A DNA stretch of 64,000 nucleotides from Nannocystales bacterium (GTDB lineage: Bacteria > Myxococcota_A > Polyangia > Nannocystales > Nannocystaceae): positions 1 through 64,000 of the forward strand of contig JBOEGF010000008.1 in the NCBI GenBank assembly GCA_050633305.1. Reading direction: 5' to 3'. Under the pieces are notes generated by a model, which saw only the letters and a list, made by a program, of their open reading frames with translations, was not told the origin of the DNA and did not search any database. A program made the translations under genes and the position numbers. Positions 55,036 through 64,000 of this stretch are shown here, piece after piece (positions within the stretch are counted from its first letter, which is position 1; every line of letters begins with the position of its first letter).

Positions 55036-58000
55036 ATGGCCTTTCGCGACTGGTTAGTTCAAGGGGTACTCATCACCGGAGTTGTCGCATGCGGCAACGA
55101 GGGTGCAGTGTCCCCATCCGATGGTGGCACAAGCACGGGGGGCGAAACAGGAGGCCCTCCGCCAACACCGATCGGCTCGACCGGGGGCGAGACCGGGACG
55201 GTCGACGACTCGGAGGACGGGTCGACGACCGCACCCGACGCTGAAACCACAAGTGGCGCCGAAGACACGTCCCAAGGTGGTTCGACGGATGGAGACAGTA
55301 CCGGCCAGCAGTCCCCAGAATGCGGCAACGGTATCCTCGAGGACGGCGAAGAATGCGACGACGGACCCGGCAACGCCAATACCGCGGCGTGCAAAGAAGA
55401 CTGCACAGTCCAGTCTTGCCCGGATGGCTTCGTCGGCCCGGGGGAGGAATGCGACGACGGAGACGGCACCAACTGGAACGAGTGCACCAACACCTGCACG
55501 CTTCCTTTCTGCGGTGACCAGCTGACCTCAATCGGAGAGGAGTGTGACGACGGCAACACCGACGACGACGATGGATGCTTGTCGACGTGCGTCGACGCCA
55601 GTTGCGGTGACGGTTTCATCCACAGCGGGACCGAGGAGTGCGACGACGGCAACCTGATCGACACCGACAGCTGCCGGTCCGACTGCACCCAAGCGTTCTG
55701 TGGCGACAGCGTGATCTGGGAAGGCGTGGAGACCTGCGACGACGGCAACCTCTCCGACACCGACGCGTGCCCGACATCATGCGTCCCGGCATTCTGTGGC
55801 GACGCCTTCGTACAATCGGGCGTCGAGGCCTGTGATGACGGCAACCTGATCGACACGGACGCGTGCCTGGCGAGCTGCCAGACGGCCACCTGCGGAGACG
55901 GCGTGATCTGGGAGGGCACCGAGACCTGCGACGACATGAACCTCGCGGACGACGATGCCTGCCCATCGACGTGCGCCCCCGCGTTCTGCGGAGACGGGTT
56001 CATCTGGGCGGGGGTGGAGACCTGCGACGACGGGAACATCGACGACACCGACAGCTGCCCTACGTCCTGCAGCCCCGCATTTTGCGGCGACGGCTTCGTG
56101 GAGGCTGCCAACGAGGCCTGTGACGACGCGAATGCGGACAACACCGACGACTGCCTCGACGACTGCACGGTCGCCTCGTGTGGAGATGGGTTCGTTCAAC
56201 TCGGGGTCGAGGAGTGCGACGACGGCGGCATCATCGACGGCGACGGTTGCGAGAGCGACTGCACAATCACGCCAGACCCATGCGGTCCTCCCGGGCAAGT
56301 TCTGTTCGTCGACGACGACGCGACTGGGGCCAACGATGGCTCGTCTTGGGACGACGCGTACACCTCGGTGTTCTTCGCGTTGCTGGCCGCCGAGTCCAAC
56401 GACGAGCTCTGGATCGCCCAAGGGAACTACCACCCGATCGCAGCCAACGCGCCTGTGGCAAGCCTGACGACGTGCGTCGATGTGTACGGCGGCTTCCTCG
56501 GAACCGAGGCCGACGTCGACGACCGCCCCACGCCACTGGCACCGACGGTCTTCGACGGCGACTTCAACCTGGACGATGGTGCTGCGATGCTGGACGACAA
56601 CGCGTTCCATGTCATCGCCGCGACGTCGGTCACCAACGTATTGGTCGACGGTGTGATCGTGACCGGCGGACACGCCACCGGAGCAGGCGAGAGCAGCCGC
56701 GGAGGAGGGGCGATCGTCGCGGACTCCGACATCACCCTCGACAACACGACCTTCGTCGCAAACACCGCGACAGGACGTGGCGCCGGACTCTACGCCGACC
56801 AGTCCACCGTTGACGTCACGTTCTCAACGTTCGACTCGAACACCACCGATGCTGACGGAGGAGGCCTCTGTGGCGACACGGCGTCGGTCGTCGCGGTCGA
56901 CAACAGCACGTTCATCGAGAACAACGCTGCTCGCGGCGGTGGCATTGCGCTGAGTTCCGCGACACTCACGGTGACCGACTCGTTGTTCGAGGACAACACC
57001 GCATCGTCTACGAGTTCCTCAGCGGGAGGCGGCGCGCTCTATGCCGATTCAAGCTCCACGACGGTGGACCTCTCGACCTTCGTCGTGAACACGGCGCGCT
57101 ACGGGGGCGCGGTTCGGACCTCGAATGGGACGCTCGATATCTCCGACTCGGTGTTCGACGGGAACACGGCTTCATCGAACGGCGGAGCAATGTACACCCT
57201 CAGTGCCAGCACGACGAGCGCCACGGTCTTCGTCGACAACTCGTCGGAGAGCTTCGGTGGCGCGGTATTCGTCGCAGACGTGTTTGGAAGCTCGCCCTCG
57301 GCGACCTTCGATGCCTGCCAATTCGAGACAAACATCGCCGGGAGTCAGGGCGGCGCTGCCTACCTCGCGGGCGACCACACAACCCTGTTGGACTCCACGT
57401 TCAACGGAAATACAGCGAACACGGGCGGCGCCATCTACGGTGGGTCGGGCGCCGACTTTTTCATCGCGGACTCGAGCTTCAACGACAACGCCGCATCGAG
57501 CGGTGGCGCTCTGTATACAGCCCTGTCGACGGCCAATGCCGAAGTGCTCCACAGCAACTTCACCGGCAACAGTGCCTCCAGCCGCGGCGGTGCGATCTAC
57601 GACGGGATGAGCTCCACCCGCCGACTCACGGTCTCGGATTGTGAGTTCCGAGACAACACAGCCGTGCTCTCCGGCGGCGCGCTCCGCGTCGTCGCAGGAC
57701 GGTTTACGGTGCGCGACTGCGGGTTCTCGCAGAACACGGCCGGGACCGACGGCGGCGCGATCTCGGCGCGCGGGGAGACAAACTCGTTGATCGCCAGCAC
57801 GTCGTTCTACGCCAACAGTGCTTCCGGGACCGGTGGTGGCATCTTCCTGTCGTCCAACGGGGCCGAGCTTCTTCCGATTCGCAATGTTGCGATCTGGGGC
57901 AACGGCACGGACATGGAGGGCGAAGGCAACGCTGCGATCTCTTACACCTGTAGCGAGGAGTTCCTCAGCGTCGGTGCCGGAAACACCTTGTCACTCGCCG

Positions 58001-58191
58001 ACCCCTTCGTGGTCGGTGACGCCGGAGAACTCTTCCTCGACCAAGCTTCGGCTTGTGTCGACGGCGGAAGCAACGTCGCCGCGAACGCGGACTACGGGGC
58101 CGACGGCACGAACTGGATCCTGCTCACAACGGCACAATCCGGCATGCTCGACGCAACACCCGTTGATATGGGCAGGCACTACCTCCCCTGA
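55036..58191 (+). CDS. Myxococcus Cys-rich repeat (DUF4215) lipoprotein with beta-helix domain
   Basis: LITGVVAC lipobox, ten CGDG...E.CDDGN repeats (~34 aa), FVDDDATGANDGSSWDDAY, and many F..N.A..GGA(I/L) repeats. Confidence 0.9.
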   Translation: MAFRDWLVQGVLITGVVACGNEGAVSPSDGGTSTGGETGGPPPTPIGSTGGETGTVDDSEDGSTTAPDAETTSGAEDTSQGGSTDGDSTGQQSPECGNGILEDGEECDDGPGNANTAACKEDCTVQSCPDGFVGPGEECDDGDGTNWNECTNTCTLPFCGDQLTSIGEECDDGNTDDDDGCLSTCVDASCGDGFIHSGTEECDDGNLIDTDSCRSDCTQAFCGDSVIWEGVETCDDGNLSDTDACPTSCVPAFCGDAFVQSGVEACDDGNLIDTDACLASCQTATCGDGVIWEGTETCDDMNLADDDACPSTCAPAFCGDGFIWAGVETCDDGNIDDTDSCPTSCSPAFCGDGFVEAANEACDDANADNTDDCLDDCTVASCGDGFVQLGVEECDDGGIIDGDGCESDCTITPDPCGPPGQVLFVDDDATGANDGSSWDDAYTSVFFALLAAESNDELWIAQGNYHPIAANAPVASLTTCVDVYGGFLGTEADVDDRPTPLAPTVFDGDFNLDDGAAMLDDNAFHVIAATSVTNVLVDGVIVTGGHATGAGESSRGGGAIVADSDITLDNTTFVANTATGRGAGLYADQSTVDVTFSTFDSNTTDADGGGLCGDTASVVAVDNSTFIENNAARGGGIALSSATLTVTDSLFEDNTASSTSSSAGGGALYADSSSTTVDLSTFVVNTARYGGAVRTSNGTLDISDSVFDGNTASSNGGAMYTLSASTTSATVFVDNSSESFGGAVFVADVFGSSPSATFDACQFETNIAGSQGGAAYLAGDHTTLLDSTFNGNTANTGGAIYGGSGADFFIADSSFNDNAASSGGALYTALSTANAEVLHSNFTGNSASSRGGAIYDGMSSTRRLTVSDCEFRDNTAVLSGGALRVVAGRFTVRDCGFSQNTAGTDGGAISARGETNSLIASTSFYANSASGTGGGIFLSSNGAELLPIRNVAIWGNGTDMEGEGNAAISYTCSEEFLSVGAGNTLSLADPFVVGDAGELFLDQASACVDGGSNVAANADYGADGTNWILLTTAQSGMLDATPVDMGRHYLP

Positions 58192-58270: not shown

Positions 58271-61200
58271 CTACGGCGTCAGCGCACCGGCGTCTTCCTC
58301 AGGAGCCATTTCGGCGGGCGCCGCAGGCATCTCCATCAACGGCGAGCGTGTCCCCGCGATGGTGCCGTCCTTGTGCTTCACGGCAAACGCCTTGCCGTCA
58401 AACGTGATCGTGATGCGCGTGTAGGCCACAGGCCGGCTCATCGCCTCGCCCGTCTGTCGTACCGTGAGCTCGGGCAGCCCGGCCGCGGGTGCGGCCAGCG
58501 CGAACAGACCCGTATCACCGGCGATGATCGGGTCCCCCAGATGCCCCGCCGCCGTGGGATCCGCGTGGGTCAGGACGAGGTTTGCCGCCAAGTCCTCCCA
58601 AACCAGCAGCGTCCAGGTGGAAGGACCATCGAAGAGCTGCAGGCGTCGCAACTCTCGGGCGACGCTCTGCGCGGGGATATCGGCTGAATCAGTCGCCTGC
58701 TCGAGGATTCTGGCGAGGTAGGCGACAGCGTGGAGCCGCGCGAAACGCCGCGGATCGTTTGCACCCGGTCGGCCTTCGCCCGCGGCGATCTTCCGAAGCG
58801 TCCGCAAGGCCTCGTCGGTTCGGCCGGTCCCCGCGGCTGCCCGCGCAAGCCGAATGCCCGCCAGGGCATCGTCGGTCTGTAGCTCGACGAGGTCTTCGTA
58901 CTGCCGATACGCACCGTCGTACCAGCCGTGCCGCAGGAAGATGTCTCCGAGCAGTTTGCGGCTCGCCGCGCTGGTTGGGTCGAACTCGACGATCTCGGAG
59001 AACAGTCGCTGCGCTTCGTCGGTTTGTCCGTGCGCAACCATGATCTCCCCCAGCGATTGAGCCAACCCCGGGGTCATCAGCCCCTGCTCGCGCAGGCGAC
59101 GGCCACGCCCGACCGCTTGCTCGAGGCGGCCGCCTGCGACCAGCAACTCCAGCAACCGCAGCTCTCCTGCGGGGTCTCCCGGAGCCCGTGCGAGCGCGGC
59201 ACGGACCACACCGAGCTTATCGTCCAACGTAACCTCCAGGATTACCCGGCGGTCCACATCCGCCCAGTCGACGAGACTCCCAAACATCGCGCTGTCGACG
59301 GATGCGATCAGTGCGGGGTCGACCAAGCGACGCAGCAACGCCCGCGCGACGTAGCGAGCCGCGTCGGACTCGTCGTGGAAGTGGCTCAGCAACAGTTCGA
59401 TGTCGGCTTCACTCGCCGCGCTCGCCTGCAGGAGCCGTAGAAAGGTGCGCTGGTCCTTCCACCCCCGAATCTCGCAGCTTCCCGCCGCCGCTTCGTAGCT
59501 CTGCAGCGACTGCGTCATGGTCACAGCGCTTCCCAGACGTTTGCGCCACAGGATGCGTCGATGGGCGAGTCCCCGAGCCGAAGCGTCGCTGCACGGGAGC
59601 TTCCGGCCGCGCCGGACCGACGAGACGATTCGGCGACGCTCTCGCTGTGCCCTGGGCTGCACTTCGGCGATCTTGTCGATACGGGAGTCCTCCGTCACGC
59701 CTCCCCTCTTGCCACCTCCGGCGCCCCCGCCTCCCATGAGAGGATCGTCGCCGCTGCCAAGGTTGACCTTCTTCTTGCGAGTCTTGGTCGCTGGCGAAGG
59801 CGCCTCGAGCTTCGCCTTCGCCGCAAACTCCCGAGATTCCTCCTCCATCACCTTTCCGTCCGCTGCGCGTTGCGGCTCGGCGTCCACACTCGAAGCATCG
59901 ACACTCGCGACCGCAGCGTCTCCAGGGCTGCTCGCAACGTTCGAGACCTCCTCGTTCTTCGCGCCCTCCACCGCTTTTGCAGCCACGGCCTCGTCAGCGG
60001 ACGATCCGGAATCGCACCCAAACGGTGCACTGAAGAACCCTACAAGGATTCGCTCAGGGAGACTGGCGTCGTCCGCCAATCCTCGCTTGGTCGGGACCCG
60101 GTCGCGCAGGTTTGCGGTCAGCCGAACCCCGCCGATCTGACGCTGCCTTCGGACGATGCCAGCACTTGCGTAAGCCCGCTCGCTCTCCAGGGCCAAGATC
60201 GAAGTGTAAGGACTCATCAGCCCATACTCGAGGCCCAGCGACAACACCTTGCCGCGTACCGCTTCGGGGCCCCGGCTGTCCCCGAGCAGGCGCTCGATGT
60301 ACGCCGCGGCCCACAGTCGGGGCACGACCTGCTCCAGCACGCCCTTCGTTCGCTCGAGCTTGTGCACCTTCTCGAACGGCTCGCCCCCCAGCCGTCCACG
60401 AACTGTGACCTCGTCGGGAAGGTCGTAGTGCGTGCGTGCGAGGAGCACGAGTTCCTGGCCCCGAGAGAGTTTTCCGGTGGTGTTGACGAACACGTCGTCC
60501 AAGCCCTCTCCCAGCTCGACCTCGAGGTCGGTGATCGTGGGGGTCTTGAGAGCACCCGACAGCTCGAGTGCGCGGACGATCGCTTGCTCGGGCGACTGCA
60601 CACGCAGGTGAGTTCCACCGCCGATCCGCGCGAGGGCGTGAAGCAGAGCGTCGTCCACCTCCTGACCCACACCGACGGTGAACAGTCTCGCCCGAGACCC
60701 GGTCATGCTTCGGCGGAGTCGCTCGGCCAACGCATCGCCGGCCCGCTCCCCGCTCGTGGCCATCCCGTCCCCGACATAGACGACCGCGGGTTGATCGAGC
60801 CCGTGCACCCGCTCCAGCGCCTCCTCGAAGATCGCGCCGAGGTCCGTCGCACCGCCGGTCCCGTGCTCCGCAAGCCGCTCTAGAGCCGCCGAAACCGTAT
60901 CGGGGCTAGCCTTGGCAAGCCCCGCCTCGGGGTAGAGCACCTCCGCTCGGACATCCGCGCTGACGACCGCAAACTCGTCCCCTGCACTGAGACTGCGCAA
61001 GAACGCCTCCGCCACCGCAAGCCGGGTTTGATACTCCGCGGGGTCGCCGGCCGCCGACGTATCGACGACCACGACAACTTGCCCTTGCGGGGTCGGGACC
61101 TCGTCGAAGTCGAGTTCGGGGCTGTAACGAACCATCGCGTAGCGAGCTTGGTCGCCTCCGGGCTCGAGCATCGACAGACGCAGCGGTGGACGCTCGGTGC

Positions 61201-62494
61201 CCGGCCGCTTCTTGAGTTCGAGCTGGAAGTCCGCGCGTGGCGTGTATCCGCTTCGCCGCATGGTCACTCGTTTTCCGTCTTCGTCGACACGGGCTTCGGC
61301 GAGCGTCGCGATGTCGTAGTCGTCTGCGAGCTTGCCAAGCTCGACCGAGAGCGCGAAGTCCTCGATGCTTGCGGTCCGCTTCTTGCCCGGCCCTGCCAAC
61401 GGGTAGCTGTATCGAAGCTTGCCATCGGACTCGGTGAGGAGTTGTTGATAGCGCACCACGATGCGTCGGCTGCCCGACGCGGGAACAGGGAAGATGCGGG
61501 CGCGAACCGTGTGCTCGTCGATCCACTCCAACAACGCGGGGTCGTTCGCCTTCTGCACGGTCTCTTCGTAGGTGCGTGCCGCCTTCTTTCGCTCGACCAC
61601 CTCCCCCTCGACGAGCTGTCCATTCGTCTCCAGCGCAAAGCTGACCAGCTGGCTCCCGTGAGGAATGGTGAACCAGTAGTAGCCTTCGACATCTCGGCTC
61701 GAGGGGTTGAAGAAGACTTGCTCAACCTTGGTCTCCGCCAACTCGTCGCGCATCACCACGTTGACCGACTGCCGCTGAATCTGAAGAGGCAGCGCTTCGG
61801 ACCCCGGCGGCGCGGACCGGTCGACGGCATACAAGCTGCCCGACCCTGCCGAGCCGCCAGCCCCCAGACCACTGCCGTCGCCCATTCCCCCGGTCCAGTC
61901 GTCCCAGAACGCGACGGCCTCCACCTGCGGCGCAGCGCTAGCGCTGAGCGTGACCCGCTCACCCGCCGCCGCCTCGGTCCGGCCTCCGGCGTTGCTCACG
62001 ATGGCCAAGCCATCCGCCACGTAGACCCGTGCCTCACCGTCACGAACCTCCAAGCTCGCGCCACCGTCGGAAAGAGCCACCGCAGCGTCCCCTACCTTGT
62101 GGGACACCGGCGCCTGGCCGCGTTCTAGGCCCGGGGCATCCAACCATGCGCGGCCCGCAACGAGGACCAATCCTTCGTGCAGCTCCACGGTCGTGCCCTC
62201 GTCGAGGTACACACGTGCGCCATCGCTGAGTCGGATCAGCGCACGCGCACCACCGGCGGTGCGAAGACGAGCGCCCTGCGGCAGTGGTGTGCCCGACAAC
62301 AGCCGACGAGCCTCGCCGTCAGTCTCGATGACGACCTCGCCAGCCGCGAGTTCGAGATTCGCCGCGAGCTGCTCGGTGGCGAGCGGAGGAGGGGTTTCCC
62401 AGGGTTTGAGGACCGCCAACGCAACGCCTCCGCCGATGAGCGCGACGGCTGCGATGCCCTGAAGGATCTTGTGACGAACGGTAGAGCGGGTCAT
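58271..62494 (-). CDS. FecR-like/VIT/von Willebrand A/TPR multidomain membrane protein
   Basis: N-terminal TM and FecR-like region (LRTAGGARALIRLSDG). VIT (EQVFFNPSSRDVEGYYWF...DPALLEW), vWA (VVVVDTS, GATDLG, YVGDG) and TPRs. Confidence 0.88.
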   Translation of the reverse strand: MTRSTVRHKILQGIAAVALIGGGVALAVLKPWETPPPLATEQLAANLELAAGEVVIETDGEARRLLSGTPLPQGARLRTAGGARALIRLSDGARVYLDEGTTVELHEGLVLVAGRAWLDAPGLERGQAPVSHKVGDAAVALSDGGASLEVRDGEARVYVADGLAIVSNAGGRTEAAAGERVTLSASAAPQVEAVAFWDDWTGGMGDGSGLGAGGSAGSGSLYAVDRSAPPGSEALPLQIQRQSVNVVMRDELAETKVEQVFFNPSSRDVEGYYWFTIPHGSQLVSFALETNGQLVEGEVVERKKAARTYEETVQKANDPALLEWIDEHTVRARIFPVPASGSRRIVVRYQQLLTESDGKLRYSYPLAGPGKKRTASIEDFALSVELGKLADDYDIATLAEARVDEDGKRVTMRRSGYTPRADFQLELKKRPGTERPPLRLSMLEPGGDQARYAMVRYSPELDFDEVPTPQGQVVVVVDTSAAGDPAEYQTRLAVAEAFLRSLSAGDEFAVVSADVRAEVLYPEAGLAKASPDTVSAALERLAEHGTGGATDLGAIFEEALERVHGLDQPAVVYVGDGMATSGERAGDALAERLRRSMTGSRARLFTVGVGQEVDDALLHALARIGGGTHLRVQSPEQAIVRALELSGALKTPTITDLEVELGEGLDDVFVNTTGKLSRGQELVLLARTHYDLPDEVTVRGRLGGEPFEKVHKLERTKGVLEQVVPRLWAAAYIERLLGDSRGPEAVRGKVLSLGLEYGLMSPYTSILALESERAYASAGIVRRQRQIGGVRLTANLRDRVPTKRGLADDASLPERILVGFFSAPFGCDSGSSADEAVAAKAVEGAKNEEVSNVASSPGDAAVASVDASSVDAEPQRAADGKVMEEESREFAAKAKLEAPSPATKTRKKKVNLGSGDDPLMGGGGAGGGKRGGVTEDSRIDKIAEVQPRAQRERRRIVSSVRRGRKLPCSDASARGLAHRRILWRKRLGSAVTMTQSLQSYEAAAGSCEIRGWKDQRTFLRLLQASAASEADIELLLSHFHDESDAARYVARALLRRLVDPALIASVDSAMFGSLVDWADVDRRVILEVTLDDKLGVVRAALARAPGDPAGELRLLELLVAGGRLEQAVGRGRRLREQGLMTPGLAQSLGEIMVAHGQTDEAQRLFSEIVEFDPTSAASRKLLGDIFLRHGWYDGAYRQYEDLVELQTDDALAGIRLARAAAGTGRTDEALRTLRKIAAGEGRPGANDPRRFARLHAVAYLARILEQATDSADIPAQSVARELRRLQLFDGPSTWTLLVWEDLAANLVLTHADPTAAGHLGDPIIAGDTGLFALAAPAAGLPELTVRQTGEAMSRPVAYTRITITFDGKAFAVKHKDGTIAGTRSPLMEMPAAPAEMAPEEDAGALTP

Positions 62495-62549
62495 GGGGTG
62501 CATTCCTCGGGAAGCGGCGAGGTCTCAACGTGTCGAGGAGGGCGAAGGT

Positions 62550-62735: not shown

Positions 62736-63482
62736 TCACGGCCTTCGCTGCTCCGCGCTCAACACCGTGCGCTCCAACGTCTTGCGGTGGGCCTTGCCGC
62801 GAACGCTCCAGTACGGCTTGATGCGCAGCCGGTCCCGAGACACCCCACGCGCGAGCCACACCTCCCGAAGGGCCACGACCGCCGTCGCTTCCCCCGAAAG
62901 CCACACCACCCCGGGCCCATCGGGGACCGAAGCCGTTCGGGCGTGCTCGACCAACGCTTCGCCAGACGCTCTTCGGCGCGAAACGGCGACCAGGTCGAGG
63001 TGTTTGACGGCGTCTGTCTCATCCTCGTGAGTCTCGATTGCACCGAACGTGGGGGCGTTGGGCGGGAGCGCGGACAAGAGTGCTTCCGCCAGTCCAATCG
63101 CGGTTTCGTCCCCGTAGAACGCGGCCCAAGGCTCAGATCCTCGTGGGGCAGGAACACTGGACCCGGGGCCCAAGAAGTGAACGGCATTCCCGGGCTGAAG
63201 TCCGTTCACCCACCGGGATGCGGCGCTGTCGCCCTGCGCGAACACGACGATGTCCATCTCGCCGACCGAGGCATCAATGCGCGCAGGCGTGTAGCTGCGC
63301 ATCTCGCCCTCCCCGACATGCACCTTGATCTTGCAACCCGGAGTGAACGGCACCCCCGCGCAGCGTTCAGAATGCAGCTCGACCCGGAGGACCGACGGCG
63401 AGAGCCTCCGAACGCCAGTGACTTGGGCTTCGTGTCCAAGTGCCCGCACTCCGAGGCTCTGGATGCTCTTTGAAAATGCCAT
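62736..63482 (-). CDS. Siderophore-interacting protein (ViuB/YqjH-like FAD-binding reductase)
   Basis: MRSYTP, AASRWV, YGDETA, WLSGEA and KPYW. Confidence 0.85.
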   Translation of the reverse strand: MAFSKSIQSLGVRALGHEAQVTGVRRLSPSVLRVELHSERCAGVPFTPGCKIKVHVGEGEMRSYTPARIDASVGEMDIVVFAQGDSAASRWVNGLQPGNAVHFLGPGSSVPAPRGSEPWAAFYGDETAIGLAEALLSALPPNAPTFGAIETHEDETDAVKHLDLVAVSRRRASGEALVEHARTASVPDGPGVVWLSGEATAVVALREVWLARGVSRDRLRIKPYWSVRGKAHRKTLERTVLSAEQRRP

Positions 63483-63486
63483 TCAA
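63470..63486. promoter_or_regulatory. Fur-box-like inverted repeat overlapping the start codon of the siderophore-interacting gene
   Basis: TTGAAAATGCCATTCAA (TTGAA-N7-TTCAA), an AT-rich element in GC-rich DNA. Confidence 0.5.
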
Positions 63487-63602: not shown

Positions 63603-64000
63603 ATGCGACACGTTCTCAGCATGGCGGTTCTCGGCGTCGTCGGACTCATCGCGACCCCAGCGTGGGCTGGTTGACCCGGCTGAACGAACCCCAACCTCCC
63701 GGGCGGAGGTGCCACGCTCAATCAGAAACCCCTCGACACCGGTCGGCTGCGCCTCGGCGCGGTCATGCTGGGCTCGTGGGCGCGTTCCACCCACGACGGT
63801 CGTAGCGGCGACGGCCTCCCAAACTCAGAACACCGTATCGGCGCGGGGTGGGCCCAGTGGAATCTCTCGGCCCAGCTAGGGATCGCAGAACGGTTTGCAT
63901 TCGACGTCATGCTTCCTCTGCGACTGACCACTCTCAACGTGGCCTCGCTCGGTCCTGGAAACCGCTCGTTGGACGTTGGCGACACCATCCATCGCGACCA
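63603..64000 (+). CDS. Candidate selenoprotein (UxxU) exported protein, possibly an outer-membrane beta-barrel; 3' end outside the window
   Basis: MRHVLSMAVLGVVGLIATPAWA|G-TGA-P-G-TGA-TNPNLP... TGA at 63672 and 63681, then open to the window end with alternating beta-strand patterns (WNLSAQLGIAERFAFDVMLPL). Confidence 0.65.
63694..63710 (+). promoter_or_regulatory. Candidate bacterial SECIS hairpin
   Basis: ACCTCC-CGGGC-GGAGGT, a 6-bp stem starting at the 11th nt after the second UGA, with G at loop position 2. Confidence 0.55.

Follow-up and report, generated by a model that had tools for sequence, protein, structure and literature searches.

A very probable, hitherto unannotated double-selenocysteine outer-membrane beta-barrel in a Nannocystales genome

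Organization of the locus

The DNA analysed in this work (hereafter the window) is a 64-kb stretch constituting the start of contig C8 of a genome of 11.0 Mb that is 92% complete. Its last nucleotides contain the 5' part of a gene interrupted by two in-frame TGA codons, with a divergently oriented gene beside it. The features referred to throughout the text are as follows:

63603..64000, continuing to C8:64616, plus strand: 5' part of the predicted UxxU outer-membrane beta-barrel gene, 337 aa in total (from sequence, homologs and model)
63603..63668, plus strand: predicted signal peptide ending in A-W-A, with a putative cleavage site (from sequence)
63672..63674, plus strand: first in-frame TGA, U24 (TGA in 27/37 and TGY in 10/37 genome copies)
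63681..63683, plus strand: second in-frame TGA, U27 (TGA in 32/37 and TGY in 5/37 genome copies)
63694..63710, plus strand: SECIS-like hairpin ACCTCC-CGGGC-GGAGGT, with a G at loop position 2 (spacing 16 and 25 nt)
63792..63794, plus strand: His64, invariant in 103 aligned members, end of predicted strand 1 (alignment and model)
63831..63833, plus strand: His77, invariant in 103 members, start of predicted strand 2 (alignment and model)
63990..63992, plus strand: His130, invariant in 103 members, predicted loop 2 (HHR in the family, one His in the query)
62736..63482, minus strand: divergent siderophore-interacting protein (SIP) gene (PF04954, E 1e-17), adjacent here and not conserved as a component of the system
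63470..63486, no strand: AT-rich Fur-like palindrome overlapping the SIP start codon (from sequence)

Translation of the window from the ATG at 63603 yields MRHVLSMAVLGVVGLIATPAWA-G-U-P-G-U-TNPNLP, where U stands for the in-frame TGA codons at 63672 and 63681. Both codons lie where the initial annotation had placed them when proposing a hidden two-UGA gene absent from the list of open reading frames, and the translation table 11 track displays at this locus only a shortened frame starting at 63765. The frame had also been described as open to the edge of the window; it remains open beyond it up to a TGA at C8:64614, with no further stop, and the encoded protein ends in HHH. The source genome carries a single copy of the gene. 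A hydrophobic core followed by an AxA-type end, used as a simple rule for signal peptides, was present in 37 of 37 genome copies (see below). A 151-nt contig derived from a DNA sequencing run spans both TGAs with zero differences, and is not independent evidence because the run may correspond to the source sample. In a look-up of sequencing runs, no RNA run was listed as carrying the gene, and no sigma-70 promoter site was found in a promoter scan.

Homologs and exchange of the motif residues

Searches with the query protein retrieved matches in 18 of 100 relatives, and a profile of the family did so in 44 of 251 genomes of the class. From the query and profile matches 42 loci were examined, and the motif was found in 37 of them: 27 displayed UxxU, 5 CxxU and 5 CxxC, with no instance of UxxC or of any other residue, the second Sec position being always kept in single-Sec copies. 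Cysteine-containing homologs at the aligned positions, which had been suggested as a check on the reading of UGA as selenocysteine, were thus obtained. The other five loci corresponded to three single-Cys paralogs, one split copy and one distant match. Relatives carrying a name belonged mostly to Myxococcota. A scan of species genomes with a pattern requiring Cys added 21 further CxxC loci, and when a DNA pattern fixing TGA-TGA was used on metagenomes, all 100 of 100 matches were family members. Synonymous differences from three close relatives affect 113-122 of 314 codons and non-synonymous ones 25-37, with both TGAs retained. In a quick tree with no tested root, CxxU copies fell inside UxxU clades, and CxxC copies in two groups.

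With a deep profile, and clustering at 50% identity, the family comprised 348 clusters with an E of at most 1e-30, or 1989 when 1e-3 was allowed, the former representing a sizeable addition to the bacterial selenoproteome. Among the best 150 stored representatives, 140 lack the leader and the motif, 7 display CxxC and 3 QxxC, which indicates that gene callers systematically behead this family, as had been anticipated for standard annotation of the locus. A second protein search gave CxxC in 119 of the 120 matches listed, those with a name being described as 'hypothetical protein'.

Several variant forms were also observed. The paralogs with a single Cys (x-A-T-C-S-N-P; L191:3107, L194:3121 and L195, in G221, G245 and G255) occur in genomes with selA, and in two of these a UxxU copy is found alongside. 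Some of the QxxC forms or other database representatives have longer C-termini. Damaged copies make up a further set (L035 in G097, L040 in G012 and L197 in G116): a CxxC copy with a mid-gene in-frame TAG, one with an N gap and a frame change, and one split in two frames.

A SECIS-like hairpin downstream of the second TGA

The hairpin and its distances from the two codons were confirmed as originally described, the loop starting 16 nt 3' of the second TGA and 25 nt 3' of the first. Its folding energy was not above chance relative to shuffled sequences in four windows (z 1.22, -0.12, 0.50 and -0.51), and no relevant Rfam match was found in L001:5300-6900; this candidate element is significant only through comparison with homologs, not by energy alone. 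For this comparison we implemented the bSECIS rule as given in the legend of Fig 2 in PMC13188914, namely a loop of 3-9 nt, a stem of 4-16 bp, a G in the first two loop positions, a spacing of 16-37 nt and an energy of at most -7.5 kcal/mol. The query hairpin conforms to it (-9.3 kcal/mol, loop 5, stem 6, spacing 16 and 25), as do hairpins in 32 of 32 TGA copies and, at other positions, in 13 of 25 Cys copies. The Cys set employed in these tests, from which L055 had been dropped as a duplicate of G089, consists of 25 members that represent 24 distinct sequences, since L049 is identical to G262.

Position and pairing separate the two sets: the best hairpin was found at spacing 16-17 in 29/32 TGA copies vs 1/25 Cys copies, at least five Watson-Crick pairs at spacing 16-18 in 28/32 vs 0/25, and a stem above a null of synonymous codons (p<0.05) in 20/32 vs 0/25, the query's own value being borderline (p = 0.050). 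The nine codons after the second TGA show 0-1 differences between the query and its three close relatives. Single compensatory pairs are present (C-G, U-A and G-C at one stem pair); pooled covariation, assessed in two registers, gave pair counts not above shuffles except for one score (9/500) in one register, because the stem register slips by 1-2 bases between subgroups. Given that both spacings fall within the 16-37 nt range, one hairpin could serve both codons, in agreement with what had been supposed for this locus; a single SECIS for UxxU has been proposed in Group 4 hydrogenases, according to the accessible text of PMC13582414.

Decoding of the in-frame UGA codons

We consider it highly probable that both in-frame UGAs are read as selenocysteine. 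The source genome, in which the presence of selA, selB, selC and selD had been suggested as a check, contains all four: selA, selB and selD scored above cut-offs, one tRNA-Sec(UCA) (selC) was detected, and selD carries an in-frame TGA of its own (AAG-U-ASK). Among 31 genomes with a TGA copy, selA was found in 29, selB in 29, and at least one of them in 30; the exception (G014), 71% complete, has a UxxU copy and neither gene was found in it. Conversely, selA and selB were both absent from the five genomes with a CxxC copy (5/5), which are not independent because all belong to one family. The background of selA in a sample of the phylum was 23/41.

Two other accounts of these codons were weighed. 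Truncated forms are what databases store, as would be expected if the locus were a pseudogene, a sequencing error or the product of an alternative code whose true product is the shorter frame from 63765. Against this, homologs as distant as ~23% identity retain both TGAs, together with upstream signal peptides and purifying selection, and the frame from 63765 lacks the signal peptide and part of strand 1. Moreover, TGA closes 2216 of 3749 long high-GC3 frames of the source genome and is its main stop codon, so that this genome uses the standard code, and an alternative genetic code was ruled out. The probability of this account is practically negligible, and the conservation seen across the homologous sequences effectively refutes it. 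The UGAs might instead be read as cysteine, at both positions or at one, in a SECIS-dependent manner by a SelC*-type tRNA (tRNA-ReC), and such tRNAs are reported to be enriched in genomes with UxxU hydrogenases (accessible text of PMC13582414). In the source genome, within its 92% completeness, a single tRNA-Sec-like gene exceeded the Rfam cut-off and a single selB was detected, and those weaker RF01852 matches that were identifiable in a default ARAGORN scan proved to be tRNAs for Ser, Leu and Tyr of the ordinary kind. A SelC*-like tRNA was therefore not observed, and we assign a very slight chance to cysteine insertion.

Predicted fold and conserved histidines

Two AlphaFold2 models were obtained, both displaying a 12-stranded barrel (pLDDT 80 and 92); the better one reached pLDDT 91.6 and pTM 0.87, with 12 strands. 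The best Foldseek matches of both models were FapF (5O67) and Pput2725 (4RL8), with E values from 5e-13 to 1e-10. As predicted by these models, the protein almost certainly folds as an outer-membrane beta-barrel of the COG4313/FapF-like type. The suggestion of an exported, possibly outer-membrane barrel, to be examined by extending the contig and predicting the structure, is thereby supported by the signal-like leader and by the barrel predicted from the complete frame.

At the sequence level, the query matched no Pfam and no NCBIfam family, and a profile search of PDB sequences retrieved nothing. PF13557 was matched weakly by 6 of 17 members (best E 3e-5, below the Pfam cut-off) and not by the query itself, hence the family is a structural relative of COG4313/PF13557 and not a scored member. 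The selenoprotein models NF041027, NF049945 and NF041115 gave no match to the query or to the 17 members (E 0.1).

Mature residues 1-14 have pLDDT <50 and are not resolved in the model, so that the position assigned to the U-x-x-U is a presumed one; in Pput2725, according to the main text of PMC4493636, the 14 N-terminal residues reach the barrel lumen on the periplasmic side and fold inside it. Besides the three invariant His (His64, His77 and His130), three further His, the second of an HH pair and those of an HxH, are 95-96% conserved in the family and absent from the query. By strand order in the models, we infer that all the conserved His would lie at or in outward loops. In the subfamily L042-L062 and several UxxU loci, an extra Cys pair, likely a disulfide, was observed in the first outward loop (e.g. 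H-x-x-x-C...C).

The divergent SIP gene and the thioredoxin partner

The initial annotation placed the barrel gene in a selenium-dependent module of metal uptake or reduction together with the divergent SIP gene, across a Fur-like box. The SIP gene and the box do exist; however, the box is not located midway, as it overlaps the SIP start codon and lies ~120 nt from the barrel ATG, and most likely belongs to the SIP gene. The Fur-like pattern has 11 matches at 9 sites genome-wide, including C18:293490, C18:295682 and C18:642155. One similar site in the source genome precedes what we take to be an imelysin-like lipoprotein gene, and for this reason the box at 63470-63486 is probably real. The module itself did not hold up: among all loci fetched, SIP adjoins the barrel only here and in two near-identical metagenome relatives (L081 and L114), and the same-genus genome G002, whose protein is 87% identical, has a glutathione S-transferase instead of SIP and no box.

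The most constant partner of the family is a thioredoxin, which was not visible in the initial annotation because the query copy lacks it. From 155 loci surveyed, 45 were too short to judge; in the 110 judgeable ones, a thioredoxin gene was located directly upstream of the barrel in 57 and fused at its C-terminus in 42 (99/110 with a partner), with neither in 11, and a looser thioredoxin pattern gave 61 upstream and 40 fused. Fusions display a His-rich linker (41/42) and a cupredoxin-type end (21/42), the WCxxC of the partner thioredoxin is invariant, and the Pfam families Thioredoxin, HMA and Cupredoxin_1 were identified on example partners. The clade of the query accounts for 6 of the 11 loci without thioredoxin. 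No partner of the query copy was found nearby or genome-wide; a partner profile retrieved nothing in G000, G002 and G018, and matches in the other two of the five genomes tested.

Partners often present an N-terminal Cys/His-rich domain (C-x-H...CxxC...W-C-x-x-H...C-x-x-C-H-P), for which the one example scanned gave no Pfam match; such partners are encoded upstream of the barrel at L054, L043, L053, L060, L071, L101, L192 and L193, and a gene near L202 begins with a similar W-C-x-x-H stretch. A Pfam scan of 149 of the 160 called neighbour genes (38 loci) retrieved genes that are for the most part unrelated; neighbours of the Mer, Ars, Cus-like, HupE, P-type ATPase or cupredoxin kinds occurred at ~7/38 loci, a figure that has no background control.

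Proposed function and alternatives

Integrating these findings, we somewhat favour a reading in which the double-Sec, exported 12-strand barrel binds or passes a soft metal, most likely copper, through its U-x-x-U and conserved His; for soft-metal handling by itself, the likeliest function of the barrel, we judge the chances to be about even. Two Sec residues would be inserted in a SelB-dependent manner with the help of one downstream hairpin, and the protein would then be exported and its signal peptide cleaved after AWA. As in Pput2725, an N-terminal segment, here of ~25 residues, would insert into the barrel from the periplasm and plug it. A soft-metal ion may be captured by the His of the outward loops that follow strands 1, 3 and 5 and handed over to the selenolate pair, which in most members a periplasmic thioredoxin would keep reduced while taking the metal. 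This thioredoxin may be a lipoprotein of its own that carries an HMA or Cys/His domain, or may be joined to the barrel through a His-rich linker, frequently accompanied by a cupredoxin domain. The three invariant and three near-invariant His of the family, as well as the HMA, His-rich and cupredoxin parts of the partners, point toward such a role; against it, as far as the query is concerned, stand the lack of a thioredoxin, of the HxH pair and of one His of the HH. In the query clade, with no thioredoxin and only three of the six family His, the system possibly works in a simplified form or with a general periplasmic reductase, and this clade may have diverged in function. A further point against the metal reading is that hydrophobic molecules, not metals, are taken up by those COG4313 channels for which a role has been proposed, according to the main text of PMC4493636.

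A more elaborate version of the metal-handling reading is a tentative and rather doubtful one. A diselenide/selenolate plug would act as a redox-reset metal gate in a widespread channel family: the His would catch a copper-like ion, its passage across by way of the U-x-x-U would need no TonB, and a dedicated thioredoxin bearing HMA or cupredoxin domains would reset the pair and accept the metal. Reversion to CxxU or CxxC would tune the gate where selenium was lost, the query clade being partnerless.

The main rival to metal handling, in our opinion unlikely, is that the U-x-x-U constitutes a redox switch of the diselenide/selenol type, by which the pore is gated or electrons pass between thioredoxin and a substrate on the outside, with the His holding a structural or catalytic metal. 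The CxxC-type spacing with Sec/Cys exchange and the constancy of a thioredoxin with an invariant WCxxC agree with it, and most catalogued Sec motifs are thought to be redox sites (accessible text of PMC13188914); however, the HMA, His-rich linker and cupredoxin additions of the partners point to metal traffic, and the query clade keeps UxxU although it has no thioredoxin. It seems improbable that the protein is a COG4313-type channel taking up a hydrophobic or organometallic compound, or a FapF-like exporter of peptides, its diselenide only stapling the plug. Such an identity would accord with FapF and Pput2725 as best structural matches, the weak PF13557 matches in 6/17 members and the presence of the family motifs GD and PTG (compare the main text of PMC4493636), but a staple leaves unexplained why Sec is kept over Cys wherever Sec machinery exists, as well as the His cluster and the metal-domain partners, and degradation-pathway or amyloid genes were not recurrent among the 149 neighbours. 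As for Fur-controlled uptake or reduction of iron siderophores jointly with the divergent SIP, the adjacency of SIP and box here, in L081 and in L114, and the similar box preceding the presumed imelysin-like gene, would favour it; the absence of SIP beside any other fetched copy, that of the same genus included, and the position of the box at the SIP start codon, ~120 nt from the barrel ATG, make it highly improbable.

Relation to known systems

The COG4313/PF13557 channels Pput2725 (PDB 4RL8) and FapF (PDB 5O65/5O67) share 11-17% identity with the query. Unlike them, the query family displays an N-terminal U/C-x-x-U/C, a His cluster and a thioredoxin partner, and the word 'cysteine' is absent from the main text of the Pput2725 paper (PMC4493636). 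The TonB-dependent receptor of FCYXU type (NF049945, CxxU) and the GSU2204 MtrB/PioB-type protein (NF041027) are likewise predicted outer-membrane barrel selenoproteins, with one Sec each according to Table 1 of PMC13188914, vs two in the query, and with folds that differ from that of the query. Bacterial UxxU selenoproteins include a Prx-like oxidoreductase (PF00578), the metal-binding NF041115, an FmdB-family regulator and Group 4 [NiFeSe] hydrogenases. These share with our family a Sec pair three residues apart, CxxU/CxxC variants and a proposed single SECIS (PMC13188914, PMC13582414); they have other folds, and none is listed in the accessible text of these sources as an outer-membrane barrel whose mature N-terminus carries the motif. 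The small copper-importing outer-membrane barrel PcoB/CopB (accessible text of PMC9210255) would, should metal handling prove correct, be no more than an analogue in function, as it was absent among the Foldseek matches listed for both models and there was no CopB Pfam match in 17 members, with no homology shown.

The family is missing from Table 1 of the 2026 catalogue (119 families, PMC13188914) and is likewise not described in the accessible text of PMC9312934; a literature search confined largely to openly available main texts found no description of it. The locus very probably encodes a real, unannotated double-Sec outer-membrane barrel, and what seems new is an uncatalogued family in which known kinds are combined, namely a selenoprotein, a COG4313-like fold and a UxxU motif. 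A motif with two Sec residues would here sit in the oxidising envelope of the cell, on a fold for which no Sec or metal role is known. Furthermore, the natural UxxU/CxxU/CxxC series makes it testable whether one bacterial SECIS serves two UGAs nine nucleotides apart, as well as what is gained from selenium over sulfur at an envelope site.

Other genes around the barrel

A hemerythrin HHE-domain gene was observed directly downstream of the barrel (L001:6745-7200, corresponding to C8:64744-65199), and elsewhere near the gene only in L081. Within the window, a protein of 1410 aa with FecR, VIT, VWA and TPR domains is encoded at 58271-62503 on the minus strand, and a similar gene lies near the barrel in G002. 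At 55036-58191 on the plus strand, a lipoprotein-like ORF of 1051 aa displays Cys-rich C-G-D-G repeats and, after them, repeats resembling a parallel beta-helix.
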